Shown: positions 3,822 to 60,507 of the stretch, in pieces
How the letters are laid out: every line of letters begins with the position of its first letter
Position numbering within the stretch: the stretch's first letter is position 1
IMG/VR virus record: IMGVR_UViG_3300045988_154953
DNA length: 64,000 nucleotides
Source: a virus
Reading direction: 5' to 3' (one strand)
Program-made: the position numbers and the translations under genes
The notes under the pieces: model-generated
The model's database searches: none
What the model saw: the letters and a program-made list of their open reading frames with translations, nothing else
What the model was told of the DNA's origin: nothing

Positions 3822-3846
3822 CCGGCTAGGTAATTTTATAAAATTT

Positions 3847-3928: not shown

Positions 3929-3957
3929 TTGTTCTCAGACGAATAGTATGATATACT
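3929..3957 (+). promoter_or_regulatory. sigma-70/SigA-type promoter
   Basis: TTGTTC, 17 nt, TGaTATACT (extended -10), upstream of 4020. Confidence 0.55.
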
Positions 3958-4019
3958 ATTACCAGAACATATGTACACCATTTAATTAAATGTAATTTTA
4001 AACAGGAGGAAACGCGATA

Positions 4020-4355
4020 ATGAAGGAACACACTTTTTCAAATGTAAATAATAGAGTTGATAGATCTGCAATTATAGAAAAGTTAGAATATATATTGAAT
4101 GCTGCAAAAAATGCTGCTGATACATTTATGATATATATTTCTAACGATAACTTTGAATGCAGAAATAATGTTGATGCAAATGATTTTGAATTAGACGAAA
4201 AAGATTTTCATTTATCATATGGATCTTATGAGTTACATATTAATTTAAACGAAACTGATATAAAATATTTAGCAGCGGAGGAAAATAATTATGAAGGAGA
4301 ATTATTTATTTTTTCGTTAGTTAAATATAATACAGAAATCAGCATGGTCTTCTAA
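4020..4355 (+). CDS. hypothetical protein
   Basis: ORF with RBS AGGAGGAA. No recognisable motif. Confidence 0.6.
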   Translation: MKEHTFSNVNNRVDRSAIIEKLEYILNAAKNAADTFMIYISNDNFECRNNVDANDFELDEKDFHLSYGSYELHINLNETDIKYLAAEENNYEGELFIFSLVKYNTEISMVF

Positions 4356-4380
4356 TATTGGAAGTCCATCGAAAATATAT

Positions 4381-4397
4381 AGACTAATCAATATAAT
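4381..4397 (+). promoter_or_regulatory. 17-nt motif copy M3 (AGACTAATCAATATAAT)
   Basis: One mismatch. Intergenic. Confidence 0.5.
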
Positions 4398-4516
4398 ATT
4401 TATTGATTGATGATACATATACATATATGTATATGATAGTTGATATATTTTATTTTTTATTTGACGTAGCTGCTCAAATGCAGCTACGGACATAAAATAA
4501 ATCGAAAGGAAGATTA

Positions 4517-4666
4517 ATGATAAATGCAATTGTGTGGATTGTCATTGGAATTGTTATGTTCTTGTATTTATTTGCATGTTGTAAAGTTGGTTCAGATGCA
4601 GATGATTGGATGGATGAAAAATTCAATGAAGAAAATAAAAATAAAAAAGATGACACGCATTATTAA
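4517..4666 (+). CDS. small membrane protein (49 aa)
   Basis: ATG at 4517 after AAGGAAG. Translation MINAIVWIVIGIVMFLYLFACC has one TM helix followed by an acidic/basic tail. Preferred over the track ORF 4524..4706. Confidence 0.45.
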   Translation: MINAIVWIVIGIVMFLYLFACCKVGSDADDWMDEKFNEENKNKKDDTHY

Positions 4667-4922
4667 TAATATTAACAATGAAGATAACTTTGATACAAAA
4701 TATTAAGATTACTTAGAAGGAAAAATAATCAAATGACAAATCAGGAATTTTTAGAATTATGTGTAGAAAAGGTAAAGAGTTATACAAATAAACATTTGGA
4801 TAAGACAGACATGATAGAAATTACAAATGAAGATGTGTTTATAAAGAAGGCGAGAACACTCGCCACTTTAGTGGTGAGATGAATCGCCGACAAAGAGAGA
4901 ATATACATATGAGGTGATAATC

Positions 4923-5027
4923 ATGAAAGTAACGCATGGTCATGGATATGTGTATTCAATTCAATATCATATTGTTTGGTGTGTTAAAGCTATATTAAAA
5001 ATCAAAAACGAAAGTGAGGTGAAGACG
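4923..5027 (+). pseudogene. tnpA: remnant of IS200-type Y1 transposase TnpA (N-terminal ~22 aa only)
   Basis: MKVTHGHGYVYSIQYHIVWCVK matches the TnpA N-terminus, then similarity is lost. Confidence 0.6.
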
Positions 5028-6128
5028 GTGGAAAAGGCATATAAATATAGAATATATCCAAATAAAAAGCAAAAAGAACTTATTCATAAAACTTTTGGAT
5101 GTACTAGATTCGTATATAATACATATCTTGCAAAAAGAATTGAGAAATATGAAAAAGATAAAATCACATTTACTTATATACAATGTGCAAATGATATGAA
5201 AAATCTTAAAACTGAATTAGGATGACTTAAAGAAGTTGATTCTACTGCTCTTCAATCATCCCTTAAAGATTTAGATGTTGCTTATCAAAAATTTTTTAAA
5301 GAGCATGCTGGTTATCCAAAGTTTAAATCAAAGAAAACACATAAATATTCTTACAAGTCAAAATGTACTAATGAAAATATCCAGTATTGTGACAAGCATA
5401 TAAAATTACCTAAGCTTGGAATGGTAAAAACAAGAAACAAATTAATACCACAAGGAAGAATACTTAATGCAACTGTGTCACAAGAATCTAGTGGTAAATA
5501 TTATGTATCACTCTGCTGTACTGATGTAGATATAAAACCATTGGAAAAGACTGGAAATTCAATTGGAATTGATTTAGGAATTAAAGAATTTTGTATTACA
5601 TCAGATGGTGAAATGATAGAAAATCCAAAATATCTCAAGAAGTCTTTAGACAAACTTGCAAAGTTACAAAGAGAGTTGTCTCGAAAATCAAAAGGTGGTT
5701 CAAATTGTAATAAAGCAAGAATTAAGGTTGCAAGACAACACGAGAAAATTACAAATCAGAGAAAAGATTTTTTGCAGAAATTATCTACTAAAATTATTAA
5801 ATACAACGACATTATTTGTATTGAAGATTTACAAGTTAAAAACATGATTAAAAATCATAAACTTGCAAGAAGTATTGCAGATGTATCATGGTCTGAGTTC
5901 GTTAGACAGTTAGAGTACAAAGCTAATTGGTATGGTAAACAGATTGTAAAAGTAGATAAGTTCTTTGCAAGCTCACAGACTTGCAGTGTTTGTGGGTATG
6001 TTAATAAAGAAACAAAGAATCTTGGTATTCGTGAATGGGATTGCCCGCAATGCGGGACACATCATGATCGAGATATAAATGCTGCTATAAATATCTTAAA
6101 TGAAGGATTAAGAGTTTTGGCAGCATAA
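5028..6128 (+). pseudogene. tnpB: TnpB (OrfB/IS605 RNA-guided nuclease family) with one in-frame TGA at 5223-5225
   Basis: GTG start after GAGGTGA. AYKYRIYPN start motif. C-terminal CSVCG..CPQCG zinc finger and RuvC-like D residues. The TGA replaces the Trp of the conserved ..WLKEVDS.. motif. Confidence 0.8.
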
Positions 6129-6394
6129 TCATTTAAGAACGGTTGGAACAGGCGGGATAGCTTGGTAGATATTCTTGCAATGGTAAGAAGTTCCCAAGAA
6201 TCATGCCACTTTAGTGGTGTGAGGTTCAAAGTATGGTCATGTAAAACATTACAGAACAATAAGGCGCTGCTTAGTACAACGGTGACTGATGGTATGTATT
6301 ATGAGCTGACTTATAACGGAGATAAAAAAGAATTGTATTTCGATGCATATAAAAAATGGGAAAACATTAAGTATAGTTTGTAGGAGGAACAAAA

Positions 6395-8368
6395 TTGAGT
6401 AAATTAGATGAAATAAAAACACTTATTGCAAAATTAAACGAAGCCGCTTACTATTACTATCAAAAAGATGACCCAATTATAAGTGATAAACGGTATGATG
6501 AGTGGTATGATCAACTTGTGCAGCTTGAAAAAGAAACAGGAATTATATTAGCCAGTTCACCAACTCAAACTGTGCAGGGTTTCTTATTGAAGGATTTGAA
6601 AAAAGTTAAGCATATGCGACCTATGCTTTCTGCAAACAAGTCTAAAGATGTAAATGATATTAAAAAGTTCCTTAGTAATAAAAGGGGAATTGTTAGTTGG
6701 AAGATGGATGGTCTGACAATTGTATTAACGTATAAAGCAGGAAAGTTTATACAGGCTGTTACCAGAGGTACTGGAGAGATTGGTGAGGATGTAACCCATA
6801 CAATGAGAATGTGCGAAAATATTCCTTTGACTATCCCATATCCAATTGATATGACTGTACGTGGTGAATGTGTTATCTCATGGAACGAGTTTACAAGAAT
6901 AAATGATAAACTTATTGATAAATATAAACATCCTCGCAATTTAGCTGCAGGTACTGTTAGACAGCTCGATTCTAACATTGTTAAAGATAGAAAGATTATA
7001 TTTAAAGCTTTCGAGCTTGTGCAGGATGATAATTATAATCATCCAAAAGTCGCTGAGAAAATATATGATATTGGTGAATCATTTAATTTCTTATCTGAAT
7101 GTGGCTTTGATGTAGTTGAACACAATATTGTCACAAGAGATACTGTAGACACAATGATCGAAAAGTTTGACCCAGATCAATATGCATATCCTGTGGATGG
7201 ATTGATTTTTACATATGATGACTACGTATACGGAAAGCAACTTGGAACAACCTCTAAGTTTCCTCTGAATATGATAGCTCTTAAGTGGGAAGACGAGTTG
7301 TACGAAACTGTTTTAAGAGATATTGAATGGAATACAACTCGTACAGGTGTTATTAATCCTGTAGCCATATTTGATGAGATTGACTTGGATGGTGCTTTAA
7401 CAACTAGAGCAACGCTTCATAATGTATCTATCATTGAGTCGTTAAAATTAGGGATTGGTGATATTATTCAAGTGTACCGTTCAAATAAGGTTATCCCTAA
7501 AGTACATGACAACTTAACCAGAAGTAATACATATATTATTCCAAGCAGATGTCCTTGTTGTGGCGGTCACGCAATTGTAAAGAATGAAAATAATTCTAAG
7601 ATTTTATATTGTATAAATCCAGATTGTTCAGCAAAATTTACTTCTAAACTCGAAAATTTTGTAAGCAGAAATGGAATGAATATTGTTGGATTAAGCGGAC
7701 AAACGATTGAACAAATAGTTAATAAGGGATACGTGAATACATTTACAGATATTTATCACTTGTTAGAATATAAAAAAGAATTATCTACAATTCCTAAGAT
7801 GGGTGCTAAGTCAGTATCAAAATTATTAAATGCAATTGAAGATAGCAGAAAAACAGATTTAACTCATTTGATTACAGCTTTATCTATACCACTTATTGGA
7901 AAATCAACAGCGAAAGATATTGCAAAATATTGTCATGATGATGTTGATAAATTTGTATTTATTATGAATAACACATCTCTTGAATTAGCTGCAATTGATG
8001 GGGTTGGTGTGGCCGCTACAAAATCATTAGATGATTGGTGGAGTGAAAACGCAGATTTATTTTATGAATTATTGAAAGAATTAGATGTTGAGAAACCAGA
8101 AGATGCTTCTTTATCGACATCGGATGGAATTGATTTAACAGGTAAGACATTTGTTATTACTGGATCTCTAAATCATTTTATTAATAGAGATGCTTTAAAA
8201 GATAAGTTAGAAAACATGGGTGCGAAAGTTTCTGGTTCTGTAAGTAAAAATACATTTGCACTTATTTGTAATGACAAGGATAGTAATAGCGGCAAATCTA
8301 AGAAAGCAAAAGACATTGGAGTAAATGTTTGGAGCGAAGAAGATTTATTGATATTTATTGGAGAATAG
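6395..8368 (+). CDS. ligA: NAD+-dependent DNA ligase
   Basis: KMDGLT adenylation motif, Cys4 zinc finger (CPCCGG..C..C), HhH region and C-terminal BRCT (GKTFVITGSL). TTG start after AGGAGG. Confidence 0.9.
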   Translation: MSKLDEIKTLIAKLNEAAYYYYQKDDPIISDKRYDEWYDQLVQLEKETGIILASSPTQTVQGFLLKDLKKVKHMRPMLSANKSKDVNDIKKFLSNKRGIVSWKMDGLTIVLTYKAGKFIQAVTRGTGEIGEDVTHTMRMCENIPLTIPYPIDMTVRGECVISWNEFTRINDKLIDKYKHPRNLAAGTVRQLDSNIVKDRKIIFKAFELVQDDNYNHPKVAEKIYDIGESFNFLSECGFDVVEHNIVTRDTVDTMIEKFDPDQYAYPVDGLIFTYDDYVYGKQLGTTSKFPLNMIALKWEDELYETVLRDIEWNTTRTGVINPVAIFDEIDLDGALTTRATLHNVSIIESLKLGIGDIIQVYRSNKVIPKVHDNLTRSNTYIIPSRCPCCGGHAIVKNENNSKILYCINPDCSAKFTSKLENFVSRNGMNIVGLSGQTIEQIVNKGYVNTFTDIYHLLEYKKELSTIPKMGAKSVSKLLNAIEDSRKTDLTHLITALSIPLIGKSTAKDIAKYCHDDVDKFVFIMNNTSLELAAIDGVGVAATKSLDDWWSENADLFYELLKELDVEKPEDASLSTSDGIDLTGKTFVITGSLNHFINRDALKDKLENMGAKVSGSVSKNTFALICNDKDSNSGKSKKAKDIGVNVWSEEDLLIFIGE

Positions 8369-8373
8369 GTGGA

Positions 8374-8967
8374 ATGACGGAAGAAACAATATTAGAATAT
8401 AAAATTAGTGATCATGCTCAGAAAAGATATGCTGAACGTATCATTGGAAAAGATAATCAGGTTGAAATAAATCGTTTTGTAACTGAAAATAAAGACAAAA
8501 TTAAAACTGATATTAATAAAATGATTCAGTATGGAGAAATGATTTACGCCGGTATTCAATCTCAGAAAGATAACAAAGGAAAAGTAATAAATGTTTTCCT
8601 AAAGGATTGTTGGGTTGTTTTAGTGAATATACAAACACATATTGTTGTGACACTTTACAAGATTGATCTTGGATGTGGAGATGAATTCAATCAGATATAT
8701 GTTTCGAAAATGTTAAACAAGTTGAATGAGAAAAAGAAATTATTAGCGGAAACAAAATTTAATGTCGCTAAAGAATCTGAAGAATATAAAAATTTAATTT
8801 CTGATGCACAATCCCAAATCAACGAATATAAGAGTATGGTTAAAAATCTCGAATCAATGTGTATTGGATATCAAACTATCATTGATAATAACACTGTTAA
8901 AATAAAACAGGCAGATAGAGAAGTTGCTGACATTGTAAATACACTTATTAACAAAAAAGAATTTTAA
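8374..8967 (+). CDS. hypothetical coiled-coil protein
   Basis: ATG at 8374 is in the same frame as the track ORF, which starts inside ligA. Confidence 0.55.
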   Translation: MTEETILEYKISDHAQKRYAERIIGKDNQVEINRFVTENKDKIKTDINKMIQYGEMIYAGIQSQKDNKGKVINVFLKDCWVVLVNIQTHIVVTLYKIDLGCGDEFNQIYVSKMLNKLNEKKKLLAETKFNVAKESEEYKNLISDAQSQINEYKSMVKNLESMCIGYQTIIDNNTVKIKQADREVADIVNTLINKKEF

Positions 8968-8982
8968 ACTAGTCAATTTAAT
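8966..8982 (+). promoter_or_regulatory. 17-nt motif copy M4 (AAACTAGTCAATTTAAT)
   Basis: Ends 8 nt upstream of the -35 at 8991. Confidence 0.55.
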
Positions 8983-8990
8983 TATTAATA

Positions 8991-9019
8991 TTGACAGATA
9001 TATATAATTGTGATATCTT
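8991..9019 (+). promoter_or_regulatory. SigA-type promoter
   Basis: TTGACA, 17 nt, TGaTATCTT. Confidence 0.5.
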
Positions 9020-9020
9020 T

Positions 9021-9037
9021 AAACTATTCAATATAAT
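9021..9037 (+). promoter_or_regulatory. 17-nt motif copy M5 (AAACTATTCAATATAAT)
   Basis: Starts 2 nt after the -10 hexamer and lies 28 nt before the ATG at 9065. Confidence 0.55.
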
Positions 9038-9064
9038 TTTACTTTTTTGAAAGGAGAATAAAGC

Positions 9065-9454
9065 ATGAGTAAATTATTCAAATGTAGTATTTGCGGTAGA
9101 GAATATGATAATGTTAATGATTTTCTTAAATGCGTTACAAATTGTGCTGCGGATGTAAAGAGAAAAGAAAAAGAAGAAAGCGAACAAAGATTGGCGGAAA
9201 TCAATGCAGCTATCAATGGTGTTAAGCAAGCGAAGGCGTATTATGATCAGAAATTGAAAGAATTTAAAGAAAAGTATCCAAAAGAATATGAATTGAATTT
9301 TAGAAATGACTCTGGTTGTTTTTGTAATTGTTGTGATGATATTGCAAAAACTGTTCCAAAAAGTAAAAAAGACACAAATAATTCAAGTATAAAAACAACA
9401 TATGATTTTCAGGATACTGTAAATGAGATGTTAAATCTACTTAAATTACAATAG
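9065..9454 (+). CDS. hypothetical Cys-rich protein
   Basis: ORF with RBS AAAGGAG. CxxC pairs. Confidence 0.6.
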   Translation: MSKLFKCSICGREYDNVNDFLKCVTNCAADVKRKEKEESEQRLAEINAAINGVKQAKAYYDQKLKEFKEKYPKEYELNFRNDSGCFCNCCDDIAKTVPKSKKDTNNSSIKTTYDFQDTVNEMLNLLKLQ

Positions 9455-10266: not shown

Positions 10267-12867
10267 ATGAATGGATTAAACAAAAATGAGGTTCTTGAAA
10301 GTAGAAGAACTTATGGAAGTAATAAGCTTCCAGAACCTAAAATGAAGAAATGGTATGATTTTGCTATACAAGCATTAACAGAAAAAATTACATTAATTTT
10401 AATCGCAATTGCAGTTTTACAGTTAGTTCTTGGAATAATTGGAGTTTCGGAAATTTCAACTCCAATTATGATTATTATCGTACTTGCAATCGTAACAATA
10501 CTTGGTATAAAAACAAATCTTGGAGTACAAAGATCAGCTGCCGAATTACGAGCGAGAACAGCAACCAGATATTGTGATGTAATTCGTAATGGAGAACTTC
10601 AAACAATAAATAAAGATGAACTAGTAGTTGGTGATCTTGTATGTGTGAGAATGGGACAAGAAATATTTGCAGATGGTTATTTGATTGAAGGTAAAATTTC
10701 AGTAAATAACGCTGCTATTAATGGTGAAACAAAAGAATGTAAGAAAACACCAATTGAAGGATACAAACATATAAAAACAACATCTACAGATGCTTATACA
10801 AATCAAAACTGTTTATTCGCAGGAACTACAGTTATGGCCGGTGAAGGTAAAATGATTGTTACAGATGTTGGTGTTAATACTATAAATGGTGATACACTTG
10901 TTAAAATGCAGACTCTTGAAGCACCTAAAACAGCTCTTGATATTGCACTTGATAATTTATGTGATTTTATCTCAAAATGGGGTACAATTGCAGCATTTGT
11001 AGCATTTGTTATTCTCATGATAACTAGTGTCATGCAAGTTGGTTTTGTGGAATATTTTAGTGGTGATATTCTTGATATTATTCATAAAATTGCATTGAAT
11101 TTTTCTGTAGCAGTAACAATTATTGTAGCTGCTGTACCAGAGGGTCTTCCAATGATTGTCAAGCTTGTTACAAAACAGAATGTTAATACAATGGAAAAAT
11201 TTAATATTCTTGCAAAAAATCCTGGAAAGATTCCAGAACTTGCTTATGTTGATATCATTTGCACAGATAAAACTGGTACATTAACAACAGGAATTATGAC
11301 ACCAAAGAAAATCATTGATGGATATGGAAATGAAGTTGATCAGAAATCAATTCTTTGGAGTAATATTAAAGATAATATTTGTTTAAATAATAGTGCTGCG
11401 TTTGATTCAGATGATAATATTACAGGCGGGAATTCAATTGACAGAGCACTTCTTGGACTGGTTTCTTCGGAACAATATAATGAAATCATTAACAGATATT
11501 CTGTTAAATTAAAACAGGTATTTAGTAGTGAAAATAAGTATTCTGCATTTACATGTTCTGATGGAGTTACATATTATAAAGGTGCTCCAGAAAAACTTAT
11601 TGACTCATGTACATCAGTTTTAAATTCTGGAGTAGAAATATTTTCTGATAACAACAAAAAGAAATTATATGAACATATTAAGGAAATGACAGAAAAGTCA
11701 ATGAGATGTATTGCTTTAACAATGAGTAATGAAGATTTGGTTGAAAATCAGCTTCCAAATAATATGACGTTTCTTGGTGTTATTGGAGTAGTAGATCCTG
11801 TAAGAGATGAAGTACCTGATGCTGTTAAAACAGCTCATGAAGCGGGTATACAGGTAATTGAAATTACAGGTGATTGTCTTGAAACAGCGAAAGCAGTTGC
11901 TGCGGAATGTGGAATTTACAAAAACGGTGATCTTGCCATTACAAATGATGAGTTTGAAAAAATGTCTGATGATGAAGTTAAATTAATCATTCCTAGATTG
12001 AGAGTTATTTCAAGATGTTCACCAAATACAAAATTAAGACTTGTAACTATTGCTCAAGAAGTAGGAAAATCAGTTGCCATGACAGGTGATGGAGTTAATG
12101 ATTCACCAGCATTAAAGAAAGCAGACGTTGGTTTTGGAATGCAAAGCGGATCTGATGTAGCAAAAGAAGCATCAGACATTATATTGACAGATGATAATTT
12201 TGCAAGTGTTGTAAAAGCAGTCGAACTTGGCAGAACATTCATGCACAATATTATGATGTTCCTTGAGTTTCAGCTCCCTATTAATATTTCACTTTTAATT
12301 TTGAGCGTAATTTATCCTATCATTGCGACAGGTGCATTACTTGCTTCTGTTCAAATTCTGATAATTAATATTATCATGGATTCTTTGAATTCATTATCAT
12401 TTGGTGGTGAGCCACCGAAAGAAGAATATATGCTAGAGAAACCTATTAAAAAAGGATCTGGACTTTTTATTAGAGGAGCAAAGAAACGAATTGCTGTTAG
12501 TACGATCACGTTTATTGTTTTATATGCGATTATTACATTTACTCCAATTAAGAATATGTTTTCGTCAGAAACAGAAGCTATGACCGCAAGATTTGCATTA
12601 CTTTGTTTTATGGCTGTGTTCAATGGGTTTAATATCCGTACAGAACATATGAATTTATTTAAAGGAATCGGAAAGAATAAGTTGTTTTTATATATTGCAA
12701 TTGGAATTTTTGTAATGACGATTGTTTTATGTAATGTTGTAGGATCATTCATTAAAGTGACTCAGTTGGATTCAATACATTGGTTAACAATTATTGCATT
12801 ATCATTTATTGTTATTCCAGTTGATCTTATCAGAAAGGTAATCGACCGTAAAACTAAGGAGGCATAA
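10267..12867 (+). CDS. P-type ATPase, Ca2+-ATPase-like (P2 type)
   Basis: DKTGTLT phosphorylation site, TGD, GDGVNDSPALKKADVG hinge, about 10 TM segments. Confidence 0.9.
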   Translation: MNGLNKNEVLESRRTYGSNKLPEPKMKKWYDFAIQALTEKITLILIAIAVLQLVLGIIGVSEISTPIMIIIVLAIVTILGIKTNLGVQRSAAELRARTATRYCDVIRNGELQTINKDELVVGDLVCVRMGQEIFADGYLIEGKISVNNAAINGETKECKKTPIEGYKHIKTTSTDAYTNQNCLFAGTTVMAGEGKMIVTDVGVNTINGDTLVKMQTLEAPKTALDIALDNLCDFISKWGTIAAFVAFVILMITSVMQVGFVEYFSGDILDIIHKIALNFSVAVTIIVAAVPEGLPMIVKLVTKQNVNTMEKFNILAKNPGKIPELAYVDIICTDKTGTLTTGIMTPKKIIDGYGNEVDQKSILWSNIKDNICLNNSAAFDSDDNITGGNSIDRALLGLVSSEQYNEIINRYSVKLKQVFSSENKYSAFTCSDGVTYYKGAPEKLIDSCTSVLNSGVEIFSDNNKKKLYEHIKEMTEKSMRCIALTMSNEDLVENQLPNNMTFLGVIGVVDPVRDEVPDAVKTAHEAGIQVIEITGDCLETAKAVAAECGIYKNGDLAITNDEFEKMSDDEVKLIIPRLRVISRCSPNTKLRLVTIAQEVGKSVAMTGDGVNDSPALKKADVGFGMQSGSDVAKEASDIILTDDNFASVVKAVELGRTFMHNIMMFLEFQLPINISLLILSVIYPIIATGALLASVQILIINIIMDSLNSLSFGGEPPKEEYMLEKPIKKGSGLFIRGAKKRIAVSTITFIVLYAIITFTPIKNMFSSETEAMTARFALLCFMAVFNGFNIRTEHMNLFKGIGKNKLFLYIAIGIFVMTIVLCNVVGSFIKVTQLDSIHWLTIIALSFIVIPVDLIRKVIDRKTKEA

Positions 12868-15113: not shown

Positions 15114-15354
15114 TTCCAAATGGTTTAAAATTTCCATTTGTTGAAAGAATCTGGTGTACGGAGCACGATAAATTGTTTTATTTAATTATAAAATAATTTG
15201 TAAGAAATAAGTTCAATTCTTATTGATTCTTCTTTGGCTTGCTGAAGCCAATCTCATACTTTTCATTCCATATCTTCTTTATAAGCTCTGATCCAGTTTT
15301 GAAGAATACATTGGAAGATGTTCACTTACTCATCTATAAAAAAGTAAGTAATAT

Positions 15355-15437
15355 AGGAGTGTGGTGAAATTGGATAGACACCCCAGATTTTGATTCTGGT
15401 GTCGCAAGACGTGTGGGTTCGAGTCCCACCACTCCCG
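15355..15437 (+). tRNA. class II (long variable arm) tRNA with apparent anticodon UUG
   Basis: T arm GTGGG-TTCGAGT-CCCAC. 3-bp D stem with a 12-nt loop. Anticodon arm CCAGA-TTTTGAT-TCTGG. Variable arm GTC-GCAA-GAC. Discriminator G. A1xC72 mismatch. Confidence 0.6.
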
Positions 15438-15636
15438 CTATGAACAAACTCCGAAGTACAAGGATAGTAGTTCAGAATGGATCCATAAAACAATTAAAAC
15501 ATCAAAAATACGCTGTTTTATTTCTTTATATTTAAATCTCGGTTTGGAGTTTGTAAGAAACAGTCTTTAGGTTACGTTAATATCTAGAAAACTTACCGGA
15601 GTTCGGCACTCTGGAGTGGATGTCTACCACTCAAGT

Positions 15637-15706
15637 TGCACTGCTAATGGATTAGCTGCTAAGTAGTCATTGGCCATGCAGAAAGGTTCGATTCCTTTCA
15701 GTGCAA
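15637..15706 (+). ncRNA. tRNA-like gene with non-canonical D and anticodon arms
   Basis: Acceptor TGCACTG/CAGTGCA. T arm AAAGG-TTCGATT-CCTTT. D region CTAA-TGGA-TTAG. Best anticodon arm GCTAA-GTAGTCA-TTGGC has C at position 37. Confidence 0.45.
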
Positions 15707-15963
15707 TTAAATTCTTTATTTCAGAGAAGTGAATAATCAGCATTAGGCTTAACACAAATGATAAGCATAAACTTGTTGCCAAGTGATTCTTGTAAAAAGA
15801 TTATAGAGTAAACTATTAAAAATCCTGCAAATAATCTCGTAGATCAGAGATTATCAGATATCTAGTCAATAAAAGGCGTTCACGACATCTGACAGAGAAT
15901 ATTAATTATTATGAAATGTATAAAATTAATGCGGATCATTTGCTTAGAATCATGATTCAGGTT

Positions 15964-16026
15964 TGTTCATTGGTGTAAAGGTGCATATCAGAAATGATGG
16001 TTCTGGTTCGACTCCAGAATGAACAA
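15964..16026 (+). ncRNA. tRNA-like gene lacking an anticodon arm (63 nt)
   Basis: Acceptor TGTTCAT/ATGAACA, a D arm, and T arm TCTGG-TTCGACT-CCAGA. The anticodon arm is replaced by ATCA-GAAA-TGAT. Confidence 0.5.
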
Positions 16027-16126
16027 TTATCTCATAAGTAGAAATGAGATGTGAGGACGCTATCCAAAATATAAGAAATAGTAAGCTTATGGATTGCTTG
16101 TACAAATATGCTGAAAATCCACACTT

Positions 16127-16200
16127 AGGAAATTAGCTCAGTTGGTGAGAGCGGCGGCCTTATAAGCCGTGTGTGCTGGGTTCAAGTCCCAGATTTCCTA
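16127..16200 (+). tRNA. tRNA-Ile (anticodon UAU)
   Basis: Full cloverleaf: AGGAAAT/ATTTCCT, GCTC-AGTTGGTGA-GAGC, GCGGC-CTTATAA-GCCGT, CTGGG-TTCAAGT-CCCAG. No encoded CCA. Confidence 0.85.
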
Positions 16201-16387
16201 TTCAATATAAAATAAGTATAAATGAACCATATAAAATATTCATATGTCATTCACTCCTGTTTTTACATACAATCTTTTTGGTTCATTAAATTCTATTTTG
16301 TATTTAGGCGATTTCTGCAATTCAAAGAAATTATAAAGTTATAATTAGACTTAAAATCTAATCGATAAAATTATATCGTCTAGTAAT

Positions 16388-32493: not shown

Positions 32494-32516
32494 TTTAGAT
32501 TAGGAAGATTTTGAGA

Positions 32517-33407
32517 ATGGAATTATTAGGGAGATATAAGAATGGTAATTTTACGACTACCATCTTGAGTAATGGAACAAAGATCAGAGAGACAGACGAG
32601 GATGAATTTATTCCAACTTTTGCAGAAAATATGGATATAAAAATAACAAATTTTTGTGATATTGGATGCCCATTCTGTCATGAAGGTAGTACAACATATG
32701 GAAAGTTTGGGGATATTCTGAATGAGAAATTCATTGATACACTTCATCTGTATCAAGAAGTTGCTCTTGGTGGTGGTGATGCTACAAGTCATCCTGATTT
32801 AATTCCATTTTTACAGAAACTCAAAGATAGAAAAGTTATTGTAAACATGACTGTTAATCAGATCCATTTTGAGAAGAAACAGGAACTTATTAGAAAACTT
32901 GTTAATGAAAAACTTATCTATGGTCTTGGTGTATCTCTTGTAAATCCCACAGAAAATTTTATTAAACTCATTAAACAATATCCAAATGCAGTTATCCATG
33001 TAATCAATGGTGTATTAAAGCTATCAGATGTAGAAGCTTTGGAGAATAATAATCTGAAGATGCTGATTCTTGGATACAAACATCTCAGGCGTGGTGGTGA
33101 CTTTTATACAGAAGATCACGACAATATTGTAACTAAACAGAACTGGTTATATGAAAATCTTGTTAATATTATTGATAAGTTCAAGGTCGTTAGTTTTGAT
33201 AATCTTGCAATTGACCAGTTAAATGTCAAAAGATTAATGACTGATGAAGAGTGGAACGAGTTTTATATGGGAGATGATGGCACAATGACTTACTACATTG
33301 ATATGGTAGAACGTAAATTTGCGAAAAGTTCAACGGCTGCATTTGATAAGAGATACAATTTATTGGATTCAGTTGACGATATGTTTCAAAAAATTGTATC
33401 TGAGTAA
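32517..33407 (+). CDS. radical SAM domain protein
   Basis: CDIGCPFC (CX3CX2C) followed by a GGGD glycine-rich motif. Confidence 0.7.
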   Translation: MELLGRYKNGNFTTTILSNGTKIRETDEDEFIPTFAENMDIKITNFCDIGCPFCHEGSTTYGKFGDILNEKFIDTLHLYQEVALGGGDATSHPDLIPFLQKLKDRKVIVNMTVNQIHFEKKQELIRKLVNEKLIYGLGVSLVNPTENFIKLIKQYPNAVIHVINGVLKLSDVEALENNNLKMLILGYKHLRRGGDFYTEDHDNIVTKQNWLYENLVNIIDKFKVVSFDNLAIDQLNVKRLMTDEEWNEFYMGDDGTMTYYIDMVERKFAKSSTAAFDKRYNLLDSVDDMFQKIVSE

Positions 33408-35652: not shown

Positions 35653-36159
35653 ATGAAGGTTGCATTAACTGGTCATAGACCAGAAAGATTGGGGATGCCT
35701 GATAATGAATTAGATGATAAATGGAATAAAATAAGAGATTGGATTGTAAATAATCTTATACAAATGTTTCAGACAACACTGCTAGAAGATGATTCATTAG
35801 ATGTATATTGCGGAATGGCTACTGGAAGCGACATCTTATTTGGAATGAGTTCTGTTTTTCTAAAAATAGATATTGTTCCTCTGAAGTTACATTGTGTGCT
35901 TCCATGTAAAAATTACAATTCTTCACACAAATATTATAACGATATTAAGCTTCTTGCAGACGAATGGATAGAACTGTCAGAAGAGTTCTATAAAGGTTGT
36001 GATAATGTGAGAGATCAGTACATGGTTGATCACTGTGATGTATTATTGGCTATTTGGGATGGTAATAAATCTGGTGGTGTTTGGTCTACAATTCGAAAAG
36101 TACAAAAAGCTGGAAAACAAATTATATATTGTCCTAAAGAAATAGTAACGGGAGAATAG
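35653..36159 (+). CDS. SLOG/DUF1273-like protein (tentative)
   Basis: MKVALTGHRPERLG N-terminus resembles the YpsA/DUF1273 family. Confidence 0.45.
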   Translation: MKVALTGHRPERLGMPDNELDDKWNKIRDWIVNNLIQMFQTTLLEDDSLDVYCGMATGSDILFGMSSVFLKIDIVPLKLHCVLPCKNYNSSHKYYNDIKLLADEWIELSEEFYKGCDNVRDQYMVDHCDVLLAIWDGNKSGGVWSTIRKVQKAGKQIIYCPKEIVTGE

Positions 36160-54200: not shown

Positions 54201-54229
54201 TTGACAAAATACAAATATGATGATATAGT
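54201..54229 (+). promoter_or_regulatory. SigA-type promoter
   Basis: TTGACA, 17 nt, TGaTATAGT. Confidence 0.65.
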
Positions 54230-54332: not shown

Positions 54333-54762
54333 ATGTATAAACAGATTATTATAGTTAGAAAAGACTTGAACATGTCAATTGGGAAAATTTGCAGTCAAGT
54401 ATCACACGGCTCTATGGCGTTTTTAACAACGTTTATTCGAAATAATACCGACTTAGATGGTCATGTTGATGGATATATAAATGAATGTATATACCATAAA
54501 TGGATCAACGGGTCTTTTACAAAAGTAGTATTAGAATCAAAAAAACAAAAATCAATTACTCAAAGCTGTTAAAATGGCAGAAGATATGGGAATGAATGAA
54601 GGAGTAGATTTCTTTCTTATAAAAGATAATTGTCTTACAGAACTTAAACCAGAAGAATATGATGAAAATGGAGTCGGAAGAACGTTGACATGTATTGGAT
54701 TCCGGCCAATGGATTCAGAAATAATAGATAAAATAGGTAAAAAATTTCAGTTATACAATTAA
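54333..54762 (+). CDS. peptidyl-tRNA hydrolase, PTH2 (archaeal/eukaryotic) type, interrupted by a +1 frameshift in an A7 run
   Basis: The N-terminal part (..IIVRKDLNMSIGKICSQVSHGS..) and the C-terminal part (..TLTCIGFRP..) are in frames 0 and +1. The frames overlap at 54535-54572. A7 run at 54539-45. Confidence 0.7.
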
Positions 54763-54821: not shown

Positions 54822-55367
54822 ATGAAAAAACGGATTCTTTGTGTAATTGATGTCCAAAATGATTTCATTGATGGGTCACTAGGAACACCAGAAGCACAAG
54901 CTATTATTCCTAATGTTGAGAAAAAGATTGATGAGTATATCACCAATGGTAATCCAATTATTTTTACAAGAGATACACATTTCTTAAATTATTCTAAAAC
55001 TCAGGAAGGTAAAAAACTTCCTATACACCATTGTATTAAAGATACTCATGGATGGCAAATTGGTATTAAAACAACACCTGGATCGTATGAAATTATTAAT
55101 AAATTATCAGTTGGATATTACGATTGGAAGTCATTTCTGAATAAATTTATTAATACATATTTTATAGATGATGAAGATTTGATAATAGAATTAATCGGTC
55201 TTGATACAGATATCTGTGTAATATCAAATGCTATTATTATCAAGGCTGCATATCCAGAAACAAATATTGTTGTTGATGCGTCTTGCTGTGCCGGTTCTAC
55301 ACCAGAAAAACATAAAGCTGCATTAGAAGTTATGAAGAGTTGTCAAATAGATGTGATTGGAGAGTAA
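54822..55367 (+). CDS. pncA: nicotinamidase/isochorismatase-family hydrolase
   Basis: VIDVQNDF and the GLDTDICV catalytic Cys context. Confidence 0.75.
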   Translation: MKKRILCVIDVQNDFIDGSLGTPEAQAIIPNVEKKIDEYITNGNPIIFTRDTHFLNYSKTQEGKKLPIHHCIKDTHGWQIGIKTTPGSYEIINKLSVGYYDWKSFLNKFINTYFIDDEDLIIELIGLDTDICVISNAIIIKAAYPETNIVVDASCCAGSTPEKHKAALEVMKSCQIDVIGE

Positions 55368-56000
55368 ATGGATAAATATTTAAGCGTTATAACAAATTTT
55401 GGCTGCCATTATACTTGCCCATATTGCATTGTAAAGAACAACAATCTTCATATCCCAAAAACAACAATCGAAGGCTTAGATAACTTAGAGGAAGAAATAA
55501 AGAAAAATAATTGTAATTGGGTATCTATCTCTGGTGGCGGTGATCCACTGTGGAATTTCGAACGAAATAGATTTTGGTATTATAAATTTGCTGCGATTAT
55601 TACTGGATTGGATGTTAATATTGAACTGCATACAAGTATTATTAATCCGCCTTCTTACATTGCATTATTTAAAAGAATAGTTTACCATTTACATAATTTT
55701 GAACAATTATCATTAATTTATCGTTTGAATGATGAAATAGTTAGAGTTGTATTCGTAGTCACAGAAGACTTTACAGAAGAATTAATCGACAAAATAGCAG
55801 CATTTTGTAAAGAATCTAAACAAATTGATGAACTCAGTTTTAGACAAATGGTTGATGATAACTATCAGAACACAGATTATTACAGAGATTATTTACGAGC
55901 TGGCCATCAAAAGGATTGGTGGTACATAGAACAATGTGATTACAATTTATATTACTGTGAGAACAAAATATATACAGAATACAGAATGATTGGAGAGTAA
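55368..56000 (+). CDS. small radical-SAM-like protein
   Basis: CHYTCPYC (CX3CX2C) and ISGGGDP. Confidence 0.55.
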   Translation: MDKYLSVITNFGCHYTCPYCIVKNNNLHIPKTTIEGLDNLEEEIKKNNCNWVSISGGGDPLWNFERNRFWYYKFAAIITGLDVNIELHTSIINPPSYIALFKRIVYHLHNFEQLSLIYRLNDEIVRVVFVVTEDFTEELIDKIAAFCKESKQIDELSFRQMVDDNYQNTDYYRDYLRAGHQKDWWYIEQCDYNLYYCENKIYTEYRMIGE

Positions 56001-56002
56001 AC

Positions 56003-56839
56003 ATGATAAAAATTGATGACGAGATTGTACAGATTGAAAAGTTTCCAGATGGTACACCTAGAATTAATATTGATACGAACGATATTTTAGAAAAGTATAA
56101 TGTTGGTTGCGGATTTATTATAATCACATGGTTGTATGAAAATGATGCTGAGATGTTCTATCTGTTATTAGTTAAGAAACACCTTGAAAGATTTTTTACT
56201 AATGTTGATTACTATTTATATCTTTCATATATACCAAATGCGAGGATGGATAGAACTAAATCAAATGATGAAGTCTTTACATTAAAGTATTTCTGTGACT
56301 TTATCAATTGGTTAAAATTTTCTGTTGTTTATGTATTAGATGCTCATAGTGATGTTTCAGTAGCATTAATTAATAACTGCTTCAATGAAAATCCAAAGAC
56401 TTATATCAATAATGCGCTTACTATAATCGCAAATAATGATATAATTCTATATTTCCCTGATGCTGGTGCAGCTAAACGCTACTCTGGATTATTCCCAGAG
56501 ATTCCTTATTGCTATGGTGAGAAGAATAGAGATTGGAAAACAGGTAAAATCCTTGGACTTAACGTCAGAACTAATGGTATTAAGCTTAAAGGAAAAGATA
56601 TTCTGATTATTGATGATATTTGCAGCTACGGTGGTTCAATATTTTATAGTGCTAAAACATTAAAAGAACTTGGTGTTAATAAAATTTATGCTTATGCAAC
56701 ACATACTGAAAATTCAGTTCTTGACCATGAGAAAGGTACACTTATTAAATCATTAGAAGATGGTACAGTAGAATGTCTATTTACAACCAATAGTTTATTT
56801 ACTGGTAAGCATAACAAAATCAGTGTTATGGAGGTTTAA
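56003..56839 (+). CDS. ribose-phosphate pyrophosphokinase homologue (Prs/Adps-like)
   Basis: PRPP-type binding loop IIDDICSYGGS. Length and layout fit the Prs family. Confidence 0.7.
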   Translation: MIKIDDEIVQIEKFPDGTPRINIDTNDILEKYNVGCGFIIITWLYENDAEMFYLLLVKKHLERFFTNVDYYLYLSYIPNARMDRTKSNDEVFTLKYFCDFINWLKFSVVYVLDAHSDVSVALINNCFNENPKTYINNALTIIANNDIILYFPDAGAAKRYSGLFPEIPYCYGEKNRDWKTGKILGLNVRTNGIKLKGKDILIIDDICSYGGSIFYSAKTLKELGVNKIYAYATHTENSVLDHEKGTLIKSLEDGTVECLFTTNSLFTGKHNKISVMEV

Positions 56840-56840
56840 A

Positions 56841-58310
56841 ATGAATAATATCTCATTTATGTTGATGGCAGATACATATAAAAATACAAATCCAGATGCA
56901 ATGCCTCAAGGATTAACAAAATTAACATCATATATTACACCGAGAAAATCTATGTTTAAAAATATTGATAAAGTAGTTTTCTTTGGTTTACAGGGATTTA
57001 TTAAAGAATTCTTGATTGATTTGGTGAATGATTCTTTCTTTAATAGAGATAGAAAAGAAGTTCTTAATGAATATAAAACATACCTTGATGCACAGATTGG
57101 TTCTCATAGTTATGATATCCAACGAATCGCAGATTTATATGATTTGGGATATCTACCAATTGAGATGAAGGCGCTGCCAGAAGGTTCATTAGTATCAATG
57201 GGTGTTCCATGTATCGAACTTACAAATACTCATCCAGATTTTGCTTGGGTTGTGCAATGGATCGAATGTATATGTCAGTCAGAAACTTTTGGTACATGTA
57301 ATTGGGCTACTATGGCTCATGAGTATCGTAAATTAGCAAATGTATTCTACAACAAAACAACAGACTCTAATCCTGCAATGGCAATGGCCGATTTTGGATT
57401 TAGAGGACTTGGTGTAGATAATGGTATTAGAGCTAGTAGTTCATGGTTGCTGTCATTTAACAAAACTTCTACAATCCCGGCAATGCAGTATATTGATAAA
57501 ATGTATTCTGCAGAATGCGCTAAAAATCATATTGGTATTGGTGCTGTAAGTCTTGAACATGCAACAGTTTGTGCTAATCTTGCTGTATGTGAAACAGAAG
57601 AAAATCTATTAAGAAGATTACTTACAACAGTTTATAAAGATACTTCGTTTAGTTACGTTTCTGATACATTCGATTACTGGTCTCTTATCAATGATACTCT
57701 CCCTAAACTTCGAAAAGAAATTGAAGAACATAATGGTAAATTCCTTGTTCGTCCAGATAGCGGTGATATTGTAGATATTTCTGTTAAAACAGTACAGAGA
57801 TTATGGAAAATTTTTGGTGGAACAGTCAATCTAAAAGGTTATAAAGAATTAGATCCTAAAGTTGGCATCATTTATGGTGATGGTTGTCAATATGAGAAAA
57901 TTAAAGAAATTTGGACAAAGCTTGAAAGTTTAGGTTTTGCTGCAAATACAATTCTTTTTGGTGTTGGTGCATTCTCATTTACAGCTATGTGTACTCCAGA
58001 TGATGGTATGGTTTGTCTCACAAGAGATACATTTGGTTTCGCAATGAAAAGTACAGATTGTGTAATAGATGATCGTGAACATACTATCCAAAAAAATCCT
58101 AAAACTGATCAGAATCATCTAAAAAAATCGCATAAAGGTTTATGTTGTGTAACAAAAGAAGATGATAAATTTGTTTGTCATGATGGTTACACATCCGAAA
58201 CCATTCCAGAAGATAATCTTCTTACAACAGTATTTAAAGATGGAAAACTTGTACGAGAAGATATATTTATAAATATTCGTAATAGATTAAATGGAGAAAA
58301 TGATGATTAA
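56841..58310 (+). CDS. nicotinamide phosphoribosyltransferase homologue (Nampt/NadV/Namat-like)
   Basis: N-terminal MADTYK motif. Size about 490 aa. RPDSGD motif. Confidence 0.8.
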   Translation: MNNISFMLMADTYKNTNPDAMPQGLTKLTSYITPRKSMFKNIDKVVFFGLQGFIKEFLIDLVNDSFFNRDRKEVLNEYKTYLDAQIGSHSYDIQRIADLYDLGYLPIEMKALPEGSLVSMGVPCIELTNTHPDFAWVVQWIECICQSETFGTCNWATMAHEYRKLANVFYNKTTDSNPAMAMADFGFRGLGVDNGIRASSSWLLSFNKTSTIPAMQYIDKMYSAECAKNHIGIGAVSLEHATVCANLAVCETEENLLRRLLTTVYKDTSFSYVSDTFDYWSLINDTLPKLRKEIEEHNGKFLVRPDSGDIVDISVKTVQRLWKIFGGTVNLKGYKELDPKVGIIYGDGCQYEKIKEIWTKLESLGFAANTILFGVGAFSFTAMCTPDDGMVCLTRDTFGFAMKSTDCVIDDREHTIQKNPKTDQNHLKKSHKGLCCVTKEDDKFVCHDGYTSETIPEDNLLTTVFKDGKLVREDIFINIRNRLNGENDD

Positions 58311-58830
58311 AATTATAGACGGTGATTTATTTAATACGAATGCTAAGTTCATCTGTCATCAAGTAAATTGTCAAGGACAGATGAATTCCGGTGTAGCTTT
58401 ACAAATTAAACAGAAATATCCACATGCATACGAAGAATATATAAAACTTTTAAATCAAACATCTGGTGATGTACTTAGTAAGATTCAAATCATACCAGTT
58501 AAATCAGAATATTTAGAATATGATTGTGGTAGTCTTGCGGTTCCATATACTGAGCAGTGGATTTGTAATATGTTTGCTCAAGATAAATATGGTTATGATG
58601 GAAAAATGTATACATCTCTAGAAGCATTACAGAATTGTTTTACTCAATTGTATTGGCTTACATGTGAGAGGAATAATAATTTCAATGCTAAAATTGCTAT
58701 GCCTTATGGGATTGGTTGCGTAAGAGGCGGAGCTGATTGGAACGTAGTATATAAAATGATAGAGGATACGTTCGTTAATAGAGAAGTAGAATTGTGGAGG
58801 TATGATAAAGATAATAGTAACAGAAGATGA
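58300..58830 (+). CDS. macro-domain protein (ADP-ribose binding/hydrolase)
   Basis: IIDGDLF..ICHQVNCQGQMNSGVA. Confidence 0.7.
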   Translation: MMIKIIDGDLFNTNAKFICHQVNCQGQMNSGVALQIKQKYPHAYEEYIKLLNQTSGDVLSKIQIIPVKSEYLEYDCGSLAVPYTEQWICNMFAQDKYGYDGKMYTSLEALQNCFTQLYWLTCERNNNFNAKIAMPYGIGCVRGGADWNVVYKMIEDTFVNREVELWRYDKDNSNRR

Positions 58831-59768
58831 AATTGGAAAAATATATGGATGTTATAAAGTAATAGGTATTGCTAACGATAGAATTTCTCCTCAAGGTCAA
58901 ATTAAAAAGTATTATAAATGTAAATGCATAAATTGTGGAAATACAAAAGAACTTAATGCTTATAAGGTTCGCCATAACAATTATAAATATTGTGAAAAAT
59001 GCAGACCGAAACATAAAGAAACAAAAACTAAAATTGGGAAAAAATTTGGTCATTTAACTGTAGTTGAACGAGCAGATAATTATATTCAACCAAACGGTTC
59101 TATAAAAGTTGTATGGAAATGTTTATGCGAGTGTGGAAATACAATTAATGTTACGGATACACATTTAAAATCTGGCCATACAACAAGTTGTGGTTGTTTT
59201 CACAAAAAGATAATGCAGGATTTTTTAATAAAAGATATTAGCGGTCAAAAATTTGGCAAATTGACAGTATTGGAAAAAGCATATATAAAAAACGGGAGAC
59301 AGTATTGGCATTGTAAATGTGATTGTGGGAAAACTTGCATTGCATATACGACATCTTTGTTATCTGGGAAAAGAAAATCCTGTGGTTGCCTCATATCTAA
59401 AGCAGAATATGAATTAAGTTTATATTTAGACAAATAATATTCCATATGAATCACAATATAAATTTGACGATTGTAAAGATATAAGATGTTTACCTTTTGA
59501 TTTTGTTATATTTGATAAAAATAAAAATATAACAATGGCTATCGAATTAAATGGTGCACAACATTATCATCCTTTTACATATTCCAATGAAGATAAAGTA
59601 ACTCAAATATTGAATTTAAAAGACAGGCAGAAAAAAGATAAAATTAAACGAGATTATTGTCTCAAAAATAATATTCCGTTATTAGTAGTTAAATACACAA
59701 ACTTTAATAAAAAAGAAGAACTTTTTGATAATTTCTATAAAAATATTGTAGGGGAAAAATATGCATAA
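58802..59768 (+). pseudogene. free-standing endonuclease-like gene (three Zn-ribbon repeats plus a DUF559/Vsr-like nuclease C-terminus), +1 frameshifted
   Basis: 58802..59437 ends ..LSLYLDK-TAA. The +1 frame is open from 59430 and reads NNIPYESQYKFDDCKDIRCLPFDFVIF..IELNGAQHY. Confidence 0.6.
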
Positions 59769-60507
59769 CTTTAACGTAAAAAATGTGACAGATGATGTTG
59801 TTAAATGGGTTAAAAATTTATTTGAAAAAAACTTTCCTGAAAAAAATTGTTGCATTGCTTTATCTGGAGGGAAAGATTCTAGTGTTGTAGCCGCTATTAG
59901 TGTGAATGCATTAGGGAGAGATAAGGTTAAAGCTATAATGTTGCCGCAGCACGAACAAGCAGATATTGATTATAGTATTTTATGTGCAGAACATTTAGGA
60001 ATTGAATACAAAATTATTAATATTGGAGAAACTGTAGATTCTATTATATCTGAAATGAAATCCAACGGAGTAAATATTACAGAACAAGCAATTACTAATG
60101 TTCCTGCAAGAATACGAATGGCAGAATTGTACTTCTATGCTCAATGTAACAACGGCATTCCCAGTTGTAATTGCAATCTTTCAGAAGATTGGGTTGGATA
60201 TGCAACTTATGGTGGTGATGGATTTGGATCTTTTGCACCATTGTCAAATCTTACTGTAACAGAAGTCAAAGCAATTGGCAGAGAGCTTGGACTTCCAAAA
60301 GAACTGATTGAAAAAATACCAACAGATGGCTTATGCGGGAAAACAGATGAAGATAACCTTGGATTTACATACGATGTACTGGATAAATATATCAGAACCG
60401 GTAAAATTGACGATTTGTCAGTAAAAGAAAAGATTGATTCTATGCATGAAAAGAATCTGTTTAAGTTACAACCAATGCCATACTTTAAATATACGCCAAA
60501 TAATTAG
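59761..60507 (+). CDS. nadE: NH3-dependent NAD+ synthetase
   Basis: PP-loop SGGKDSS. Confidence 0.8.
   Translation: MHNFNVKNVTDDVVKWVKNLFEKNFPEKNCCIALSGGKDSSVVAAISVNALGRDKVKAIMLPQHEQADIDYSILCAEHLGIEYKIINIGETVDSIISEMKSNGVNITEQAITNVPARIRMAELYFYAQCNNGIPSCNCNLSEDWVGYATYGGDGFGSFAPLSNLTVTEVKAIGRELGLPKELIEKIPTDGLCGKTDEDNLGFTYDVLDKYIRTGKIDDLSVKEKIDSMHEKNLFKLQPMPYFKYTPNN

Follow-up and report, generated by a model that had tools for sequence, protein, structure and literature searches.

A candidate deamidated form of NAD+ reconstitution pathway 1 in phages, centered on a distinct Namat subfamily

Positions 54822-60507 of a 64,000-nt stretch of viral DNA (IMG/VR record IMGVR_UViG_3300045988_154953, hereafter the window, meaning the whole stretch) hold a conserved unit of five genes, which encode a predicted nicotinamidase (PncA), an Adps-like homolog of phosphoribosyl pyrophosphate (PRPP) synthetase (PRPS or Prs), a Namat-like transferase, a macro domain, and a predicted NAD synthetase (NadE). 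Adps and Namat together constitute NARP1 (NAD+ reconstitution pathway 1), through which ADP-ribose (ADPR), ATP, and nicotinamide are turned into NAD+ (Osterman et al. 2024, bioRxiv 10.1101/2024.02.11.579819). We propose, with a probability that we place at roughly 0.6, that the locus is a deamidated version of this pathway.

In the proposed scheme, a defense NADase would split NAD+ into ADPR (or ADPR-1''-phosphate) and nicotinamide. The macro domain, acting like the phosphatase Adpp, would convert ADPR-1''-phosphate to ADPR where the phosphate is present, and Adps would convert ADPR and ATP to ADPR-pyrophosphate (ADPR-PP) and AMP. PncA would turn nicotinamide into nicotinic acid and NH3, and the Namat-like enzyme, hereafter Namat*, would join nicotinic acid directly to ADPR-PP, forming nicotinic acid adenine dinucleotide (NaAD), which NadE would amidate to NAD+. 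These substrates and products are predicted from what was observed, namely gene identities, catalytic residues, pocket substitutions, and gene associations.

With slightly less confidence, we suggest that Namat* carries out a previously undescribed reaction, nicotinate plus ADPR-PP to NaAD, and that the set PncA-Adps-Namat*-NadE, with or without Adpp ("deamido-NARP1"), may occur both as an NrtR-linked, ADPR-induced operon of Clostridia and as a counter-defense cassette of large gut phages, in which PncB and NadD were displaced from an ancestral Preiss-Handler operon. In the literature searched, coverage of which was incomplete, we found no prior link of NARP1 to PncA, NadE, nicotinic acid, or NaAD. 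A preliminary description of the window had raised the deamido branch (nicotinamide to nicotinic acid to NaAD to NAD+) as an idea; strong comparative support for it now comes from Ser210 of Namat*, from the linkage to PncA and NadE, and from the exchange of gene pairs in the PncB/NadD slot.

All open reading frames (ORFs) of 54822-60507 lie on the + strand and overlap or abut in an operon-like manner. Every gene named in the preliminary description was recovered where it had been placed, with agreeing ORF and family matches. The features are as follows.

54822..55367, + strand: predicted PncA nicotinamidase (Pfam PF00857 Isochorismatase, 3e-24); core member
55368..56000, + strand: small radical-SAM enzyme (CX3CX2C and GGGDP motifs; PHROG 17662, 1e-69); passenger
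56003..56839, + strand: Adps-like PRPS homolog (PHROG 619, 1e-64); core member
56841..58310, + strand: Namat*, Namat-subfamily transferase with altered pyridine pocket (PHROG 448, 9e-146); core member
57468..57470, + strand: Ser210 codon of Namat*, replacing the amide-binding Asp (SPbetaL1 D215, human NAMPT D219), by alignment
57549..57551, + strand: Ser237 codon of Namat*, replacing pocket Ala242, by alignment
57966..58028, + strand: modified selectivity-clamp helix of Namat* (GAFSFT, 10-aa insertion, CLTRD)
58291..58830, + strand: macro domain, Adpp-like (Pfam Macro, 4e-5); core in most relatives
58802..59768, + strand: homing-endonuclease gene, frameshifted (PHROG 374 and 559, "HNH endonuclease" families); inserted passenger
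59761..60507, + strand: predicted NadE, NH3-dependent NAD synthetase (Pfam PF02540, 6.5e-45); core member

A Namat subfamily with a changed pyridine site

The closest solved structure to the window Namat-like protein is 9w5x (3e-95), the numbering of which agrees with that of the Namat of SPbetaL1 (PMC12774641; the companion Adps structure is described in PMC13586617). The Namat catalytic core is kept in the window protein (D11, Y13, F185, R188, H240, R304, D306, and T394-R395-D396), corresponding in SPbetaL1 Namat to Asp13', Tyr15', Phe189, Arg192, His245, Arg306, Asp308, and the TRD motif. The nicotinamide pocket of SPbetaL1 Namat consists of F189, R192, D215, A242, R306, D13', and Y15', with D215 providing a hydrogen bond (PMC12774641). 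Five of these seven residues are unchanged in the window protein, and the remaining two are both replaced by serine, D215 by S210 and A242 by S237. The amide-binding Asp215 of NARP1 is thus Ser210 here, and it is Ser or Ala throughout the subfamily. The equivalent residue of human NAMPT, D219, defines nicotinamide specificity (PMC4919578, PMC7096376), and the entries for Khan et al. 2006 in these two sources record a switched substrate preference for D219S and inactivity for D219A.

A narrower homolog listing for Namat* returned only relatives at least 57% identical; for breadth, we ran a cluster-representative search and took residue columns from 150 representatives of 50%-identity clusters in a 1.8-billion-protein library. 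Positions 215 and 242 co-vary among these representatives, occurring as Asp/Ala in 96, Ala/Ser in 25, and Ser/Ser in 17, with a few rare types. When the sequences were split at position 215 into Namat* and canonical Namat, position 242 was the second most discriminating of ~479 columns. Among those that follow are 187 and 213, equivalent to residues H191 and G217 of the human enzyme, which lie in the nicotinamide tunnel. The differences between the two kinds therefore concentrate around the pyridine site. On a neighbor-joining tree, all non-Asp Namat sequences fall in one contiguous block. By these alignments, the window enzyme belongs to a distinct subfamily, Namat*.

Many Namat homologs are 800-1100 aa long, with the match to the query broken into two to four stretches (P0124, P0137, P0154, P0223, and others), suggesting inteins or other gene insertions.

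The Adps-like gene lies directly upstream of, and abuts, the Namat* gene. Its product scores well below the NCBIfam cut-offs for Prs (72.6 versus 296 and 69.8 versus 113), and it matches canonical NARP1 Adps proteins with a median of 82 and a maximum of 152 bits, compared to at most 57.5 bits for solved Prs structures. Judged by these scores, the protein belongs with Adps, apart from housekeeping Prs. The preliminary description had matched the Prs-like/Nampt-like pair to Adps and Namat of NARP1, which adjacency and the PHROG, score, and structure matches bear out.

The macro-domain gene overlaps the 3' end of the Namat* gene, and its matches in the PDB include the DarG macro domain (5m31, 2.5e-7) and yeast Poa1p (6lfu, 1.4e-5). 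A three-gene variant of the pathway, NARP1-AP (Adps-Adpp-Namat), includes the Poa1p-like macro protein Adpp, which converts ADPR-1''-phosphate to ADPR and counters aRES (Osterman et al. 2026, bioRxiv 10.64898/2026.01.28.702374). Macro genes homologous to that of the window also occur in canonical NARP1 operons of our own sample. The preliminary description had connected the macro domain to release of ADPR, and the Poa1p-type match fits the published phosphatase. By homology, the Adps/Namat/macro part of the locus is a member of the described NARP1-AP system.

At the macro position of other cassettes, directly after Namat*, we also observed a ~135-aa family without a Pfam match (contig L002, 9576-9995; L278, 2399-2818; L285, 3168-3563), with mutual identity of 34-38%. 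These proteins may be an alternative ADPR-processing enzyme. In L285, ABC-transporter genes and a gene of the CinA/PncC type (nicotinamide mononucleotide (NMN) deamidase family) lie between Namat* and NadE (3585-9228).

Gene context of Namat* and the PncB/NadD alternative

The window PncA keeps the catalytic triad (D10/K94/C132) and the metal ligands (D51/H53/H70) of Pyrococcus horikoshii nicotinamidase, which is also its best PDB match (1ilw, 3.9e-11); its score on the NCBIfam nicotinamidase model is under the family cut-off. NadE is a single-domain protein of 248 aa with the pyrophosphatase-loop motif SGGKDS at residue 35, and it scores 152.6 on TIGR00552 (cut-off 63.65).

The association of these two genes with Namat* was assessed in context-blind samples, comprising two Namat-anchored degenerate-pattern scans of IMG/VR and one scan of GTDB genomes. 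Each locus was typed by its Namat residues (canonical meaning Asp or Glu), and its flanks were searched with profiles. A megablast search of the window locus against INPHARED phages gave no match, and relatives were found via protein searches. Counts of loci carrying each gene were as follows.

IMG/VR, Namat*, 41 loci: PncA 40, NadE 40, Adps 40, macro 39
IMG/VR, canonical Namat, 119 loci: PncA 0, NadE 0, Adps 113, macro 27
GTDB, Namat*, 25 loci: PncA 23, NadE 15, Adps 22
GTDB, canonical Namat, 55 loci: PncA 0, NadE 0, Adps 44

When the samples are pooled, PncA is present in 63/66 Namat* loci, compared to 0/174 canonical loci with either PncA or NadE. Adps adjoins Namat* in ~97% of the Namat* phage loci, and the macro gene (39/41 versus 27/119 in IMG/VR) is far more frequent beside Namat* than beside canonical Namat. 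Both frequencies speak for ADPR as the input of the pathway, as do the ADPR-responsive NrtR beside the cellular operons and the retained adenine-clamp residue F/Y392. Deep-branching representatives agree with the scans: PncA-Adps-Namat*...NadE (P0134), PncA-Adps-Namat*-NadE (P0183 and P0184), PncA-Adps-Namat*-ABC transporter-CinA-NadE (P0136), Namat*-NadE (P0232), and PncA...Adps-Namat* (P0138). Two further representatives, P0172 and P0249, were left out of this reading, as their contigs were too short. The genes occur in at least four orders among Namat* loci, for example Adps-PncA-Namat*-NadE in Clostridium, Adps...Namat*-Macro-NadE-PncA in MT835544, and PncA-Adps-Namat*-x-NadE in the phage Phass-1, whose genes are read with genetic code 15.

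A second type of cassette occupies the same slot. Among 20 NadE-anchored gut-phage loci without Adps and Namat, PncB is present in 18 and NadD or NMN adenylyltransferase (NMNAT) in 17, between PncA and NadE. The PncB of these slot-sharing sibling phages scores 483 bits on NF003704, above the cut-off of 379. Two siblings carry a complete Preiss-Handler cassette, PncA-PncB-NadD/NMNAT-NadE (L043, 4229-8741; L056, 5715-9317), and in L056 it is followed by a Nudix gene resembling NudE/ADPR-pyrophosphatase.

Conversely, PncB or NadD was found in 0/136 Namat* phage loci (Namat-anchored, NadE-anchored, and alignment-based IMG/VR sets combined). A tblastn search of the 64-kb window with sibling-phage PncB, NadD, and NMNAT queries, including NadD-like and NadR-like adenylyltransferases, gave no match, in line with the preliminary description, which had seen no PncB or adenylyltransferase for NMN or nicotinic acid mononucleotide (NaMN). 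Cassettes that proceed through NaMN thus bring their own adenylyltransferase and those with Adps and Namat* never do, as expected if Namat* forms NaAD directly.

The two cassette types also appear to have exchanged parts. In PncB/NadD-type cassettes sharing the endonuclease of the window (L042-L052), NadE is ~80% identical to the window NadE, compared to only 45-61% in most Adps/Namat* cassettes, which suggests mosaic exchange around the homing endonuclease.

The same two alternatives are found in cellular genomes. The chromosome of C. intestinale DSM 6191 carries Adps-PncA-Namat*-NadE-NrtR (L287, 6639-11129) among ordinary cellular, non-phage neighbors (ThiI, TetR, and RluB), and Adps-PncA-Namat*-NadE operons beside NrtR (Nudix plus winged helix) recur in Clostridium, Oscillospiraceae, and other genomes (L287-L309). 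In C. acetobutylicum, the order nrtR-pncA-pncB-nadD-nadE has been described, and NrtR comes off DNA in response to ADPR as well as to NaAD (PMC2330246). As the phage gene set is the same as that of the NrtR-linked Clostridium operon, the chemistry of the Namat* cassette is probably a general route of ADPR and nicotinamide recycling that phages also carry. Canonical Adps-Namat pairs of Bacteroidota and Paenibacillus adjoin NrtR as well.

Points against the proposal and alternative readings

Several observations count against the proposed pathway. The clamp helix of the window enzyme reads GAFSFT, a 10-aa insertion, and CLTRD, compared to the Namat consensus GSxΦxΦxΦTRD; aromatic residues occupy clamp positions 3 and 5, with the residue at position 7 ambiguous. 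Ser391 is replaced by Ala and the loop residue Arg40 by Met, both departures from the Namat consensus. Other Namat* members, such as those of Phass-1 and Clostridium, have the canonical clamp GA/SYTYQYxTRD, and the adenine-clamp residue F/Y392 is kept in Namat*. Given its atypical clamp, the window enzyme is a less certain case of preferring ADPR-PP to PRPP than are the Clostridium and Phass-1 members, and canonical Namat itself also accepts PRPP in vitro.

Human D219S reportedly proved dual-specific in the original 2006 work, not strictly specific for nicotinic acid, and the review-table wording for this mutant goes only as far as "switch the substrate affinity." The pooled Fisher test of the gene associations gives p = 8e-55 without phylogenetic correction, a value that overstates independence because Namat* looks like one clade. 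Two contigs of metagenome-assembled Desulfovibrionaceae genomes (L307, 6509-10319, and L308) carry NrtR-PncA-Namat*-NadE but lack an Adps gene within 8 kb and are a possible PRPP-using exception. The window covers 64 kb of a ~200-kb phage genome, in the rest of which a NadD may be encoded. Finally, the second-best solved homolog of the window NadE is the NaMN-preferring enzyme of Francisella (3fiu, 2.5e-28), which is similarly short.

Of the alternatives, the one that fares best, although we doubt it, keeps the chemistry and changes its purpose: a borrowed cellular recycling operon would mainly supply NAD+ to phage enzymes and general metabolism and would not be dedicated to counter-defense. 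The chromosomal, NrtR-linked Clostridium operon has the same gene set among non-phage neighbors. The window also encodes an NAD+-dependent DNA ligase of the LigA type (6395-8368), indicating that the phage has a direct NAD+ need of its own. However, NARP1 and NARP1-AP have been found experimentally to overcome Thoeris, DSR1, DSR2, SIR2-HerA, SEFIR, and aRES, and the enrichment of the Adpp-like macro gene in phage Namat* cassettes fits an arms race with aRES-type defenses.

The main rival, which we consider unlikely, is a route through PRPP. Namat* would then be a nicotinate phosphoribosyltransferase that shares its fold with NadV and makes NaMN from nicotinic acid and PRPP, the Adps-like protein would be a dedicated PRPP synthetase, host NadD would make NaAD, and phage NadE would finish, so that the locus would boost the Preiss-Handler pathway without recycling ADPR. 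The PRPP activity kept by canonical Namat, the atypical clamp of the window protein, and the loci without an adjacent Adps (L307 and L308) are all compatible with this route, and nrtR-prs-nadV operons were formerly read as PRPP supply (PMC2330246). It fits poorly with an Adps-like protein that falls far under the curated Prs cut-offs and is nearer to NARP1 Adps, and with a macro/Adpp gene in 39 of the 41 IMG/VR loci, which makes sense only with ADPR as the substrate. Moreover, the NaMN-type siblings that carry PncB also carry their own NadD or NMNAT in 17/18 cases, compared to none of the 136 Namat* cassettes, and NrtR responds to ADPR, not PRPP.

We regard it as improbable that two branches run in parallel, with Namat* still using nicotinamide as in NARP1-AP while PncA and NadE separately feed host PncB and NadD. 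Adps, Namat, and the macro protein alone make up a complete known pathway, and human NAMPT D219S is said to keep some nicotinamide activity. Yet PncA and NadE, absent near all 174 canonical (D215/A242) Namat genes, stand near almost every Namat*, and a Namat that depended on nicotinamide would lose its substrate to PncA expressed alongside it. About half of the Namat* proteins have Ala215, and the corresponding human mutant, D219A, is listed as inactive with nicotinamide. Least probable is that NadE acts as a Francisella-like NMN synthetase (nicotinic acid to NaMN to NMN), as the homology to 3fiu and the shared short length could be taken to indicate; such a route would require an NMN adenylyltransferase, which was found neither in the 64-kb window nor in the 136 Namat* loci, and the best match of NadE is an ordinary NAD synthetase (2e18, 1.6e-36).

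If the deamidated version of NARP1 is what the locus encodes, why it is favored is a matter for speculation. Hosts with an active PncA may leave little nicotinamide, charged nicotinate may stay in the cell, or the route may reflect mere descent from a Preiss-Handler operon. The suggestion in the preliminary description that such a branch would be insensitive to nicotinamide-directed countermeasures found no support.

Passenger genes, surroundings, and known systems

The radical-SAM gene between PncA and Adps encodes a 210-aa protein with CHYTCPYC at residues 13-20 (C13, C17, C20) and GGGDP at 56. Its Pfam radical-SAM score is 21.1, under the gathering threshold of 29.5. An AlphaFold2 (AF2) model with a predicted local distance difference test (pLDDT) value of 90 was matched by Foldseek to EpeE, HydE, viperin, and QueE at template modeling (TM) scores of 0.5-0.65 and a probability of 1.0. 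The PDB sequence search gave no match, and the fold search returned only the generic radical-SAM fold, with no subfamily. The preliminary description had counted this gene as part of the NAD+ island, an assignment that we do not retain. Only a minority of relatives have it within the cassette; in the others it is 4-6 kb downstream or absent. Owing to this variable placement, we reject it as a pathway member in favor of a positionally mobile passenger.

We also rejected the idea that this gene is the NrdG-type activase found beside NadE in L282, as the L282 protein matches another window gene, at 32.6 kb. This second radical-SAM protein (window 32511-33407, 298 aa) is weakly similar to the L282 activase; NrdD was not found in the window. 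A YpsA-family SLOG protein is encoded at 35653-36153 of the window and at 14295-14801 of L009, where its gene comes directly after that of the small radical-SAM protein; 20 kb separate the two genes in the window.

The endonuclease gene that the preliminary description had reported as frameshifted, between the macro gene and nadE, is indeed split in two frames (58802-59437 and 59535-59768), an A-run near 59430-59437 being the site of the 1-nt frameshift, compared to single ORFs of ~320 aa in the related contigs L042, L048, and L055. In cassettes of both types its place is immediately upstream of nadE, as would befit a homing element. Upstream of the locus, a frameshift likewise splits the gene for the peptidyl-tRNA hydrolase PTH2 (54333-54762), at a poly-A run near 54560; this gene is intact in L080 and L092. 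As both frameshifts lie in A-runs, assembly or sequencing error is possible. Stop-codon recoding, considered since the relative Phass-1 uses code 15, was rejected as the cause because both splits are true frame changes in A-runs and the window ORFs use all three stop codons.

A promoter/terminator scan of the region gave fewer matches than in shuffled sequence. Just before PTH2 stands the region's sole sigma-70-like site that comes near to consensus (54201-54229, TTGACA-17-TATAGT, with TG upstream); the transcription unit may begin there. Elsewhere, the window carries a full-length gene for a P-type cation-transporting ATPase (10267-12867), unusual phage cargo, and a small tRNA cluster (15146-16201) with tRNA-Gln(TTG), tRNA-Ile(TAT), and a tRNA-like call of 87 nt whose anticodon loop is abnormal.

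The literature describes NARP1, NARP1-AP, NARP2, NARP3, and RyDEP, the last being an enzyme with which phages cleave cyclic-ADPR immune signals to ADPR. The window locus shares with NARP1 the adjacent PRPS-like and Nampt-like genes, the Namat-type core, an aromatic residue at clamp position 3, and Namat as the best solved homolog. It differs from NARP1 in having Ser for Asp215 and Ala242, in the 10-aa clamp insertion and the Ser391 to Ala change, in the flanking PncA and NadE that none of the 174 canonical loci have, and in its predicted product, NaAD instead of NAD+. As in NARP1-AP, a Poa1p-like macro gene lies within the operon, within two genes of Adps or Namat. In contrast to NARP1-AP, the order is Adps-Namat-Macro, PncA and NadE are additional, and the macro gene accompanies nearly all Namat* (39/41) rather than the minority recorded for canonical loci (27/119; 15% in the NARP1-AP paper).

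The Preiss-Handler operon pncA-pncB-nadD-nadE likewise has PncA first and NadE last, in the same positions, and the siblings carrying it have a NadE that shares up to 80% identity with the window NadE; in the window, Adps and Namat* (with or without the macro gene) replace PncB and NadD, and the ribosyl donor would be recycled ADPR instead of PRPP and ATP. NARP2 (Nampt and Nmnat, Vibrio phage KVP40) also rebuilds NAD+ with an enzyme of the Nampt fold; here, by contrast, Adps is present, no Nmnat was found in the 64-kb window, and the enzyme falls in the Namat branch, not with Nampt. The NrtR-regulated prs-nadV operons (Rodionov et al. 2008, PMC2330246) resemble the cellular relatives of the cassette in standing beside an NrtR relieved by ADPR, whereas they carry a canonical Asp-type pair without PncA or NadE and were interpreted as PRPP supply and NMN synthesis. 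Human NAMPT D219S has the same substitution at the same position, with a switch in pyridine preference reported in the entries of PMC4919578 and PMC7096376; that mutant is engineered and PRPP-dependent, whereas the change in Namat* is natural, coupled to A242S, and subfamily-defining.

Few bacterial strategies against phages are commoner than NAD+ depletion, to which the main phage answer known is NARP1. If our proposal is true, deamido-NARP1 would be a third chemical solution to NAD+ depletion, and Namat* would represent a new enzyme activity, nicotinate ADP-ribosyl transferase. Ser or Ala at position 215 together with Ser at 242 would provide an annotation rule separating the two kinds of Namat, and, through the NrtR-adjacent Clostridium operon, the long-puzzling nrtR-prs-nadV operon class would gain a deamidated sibling.

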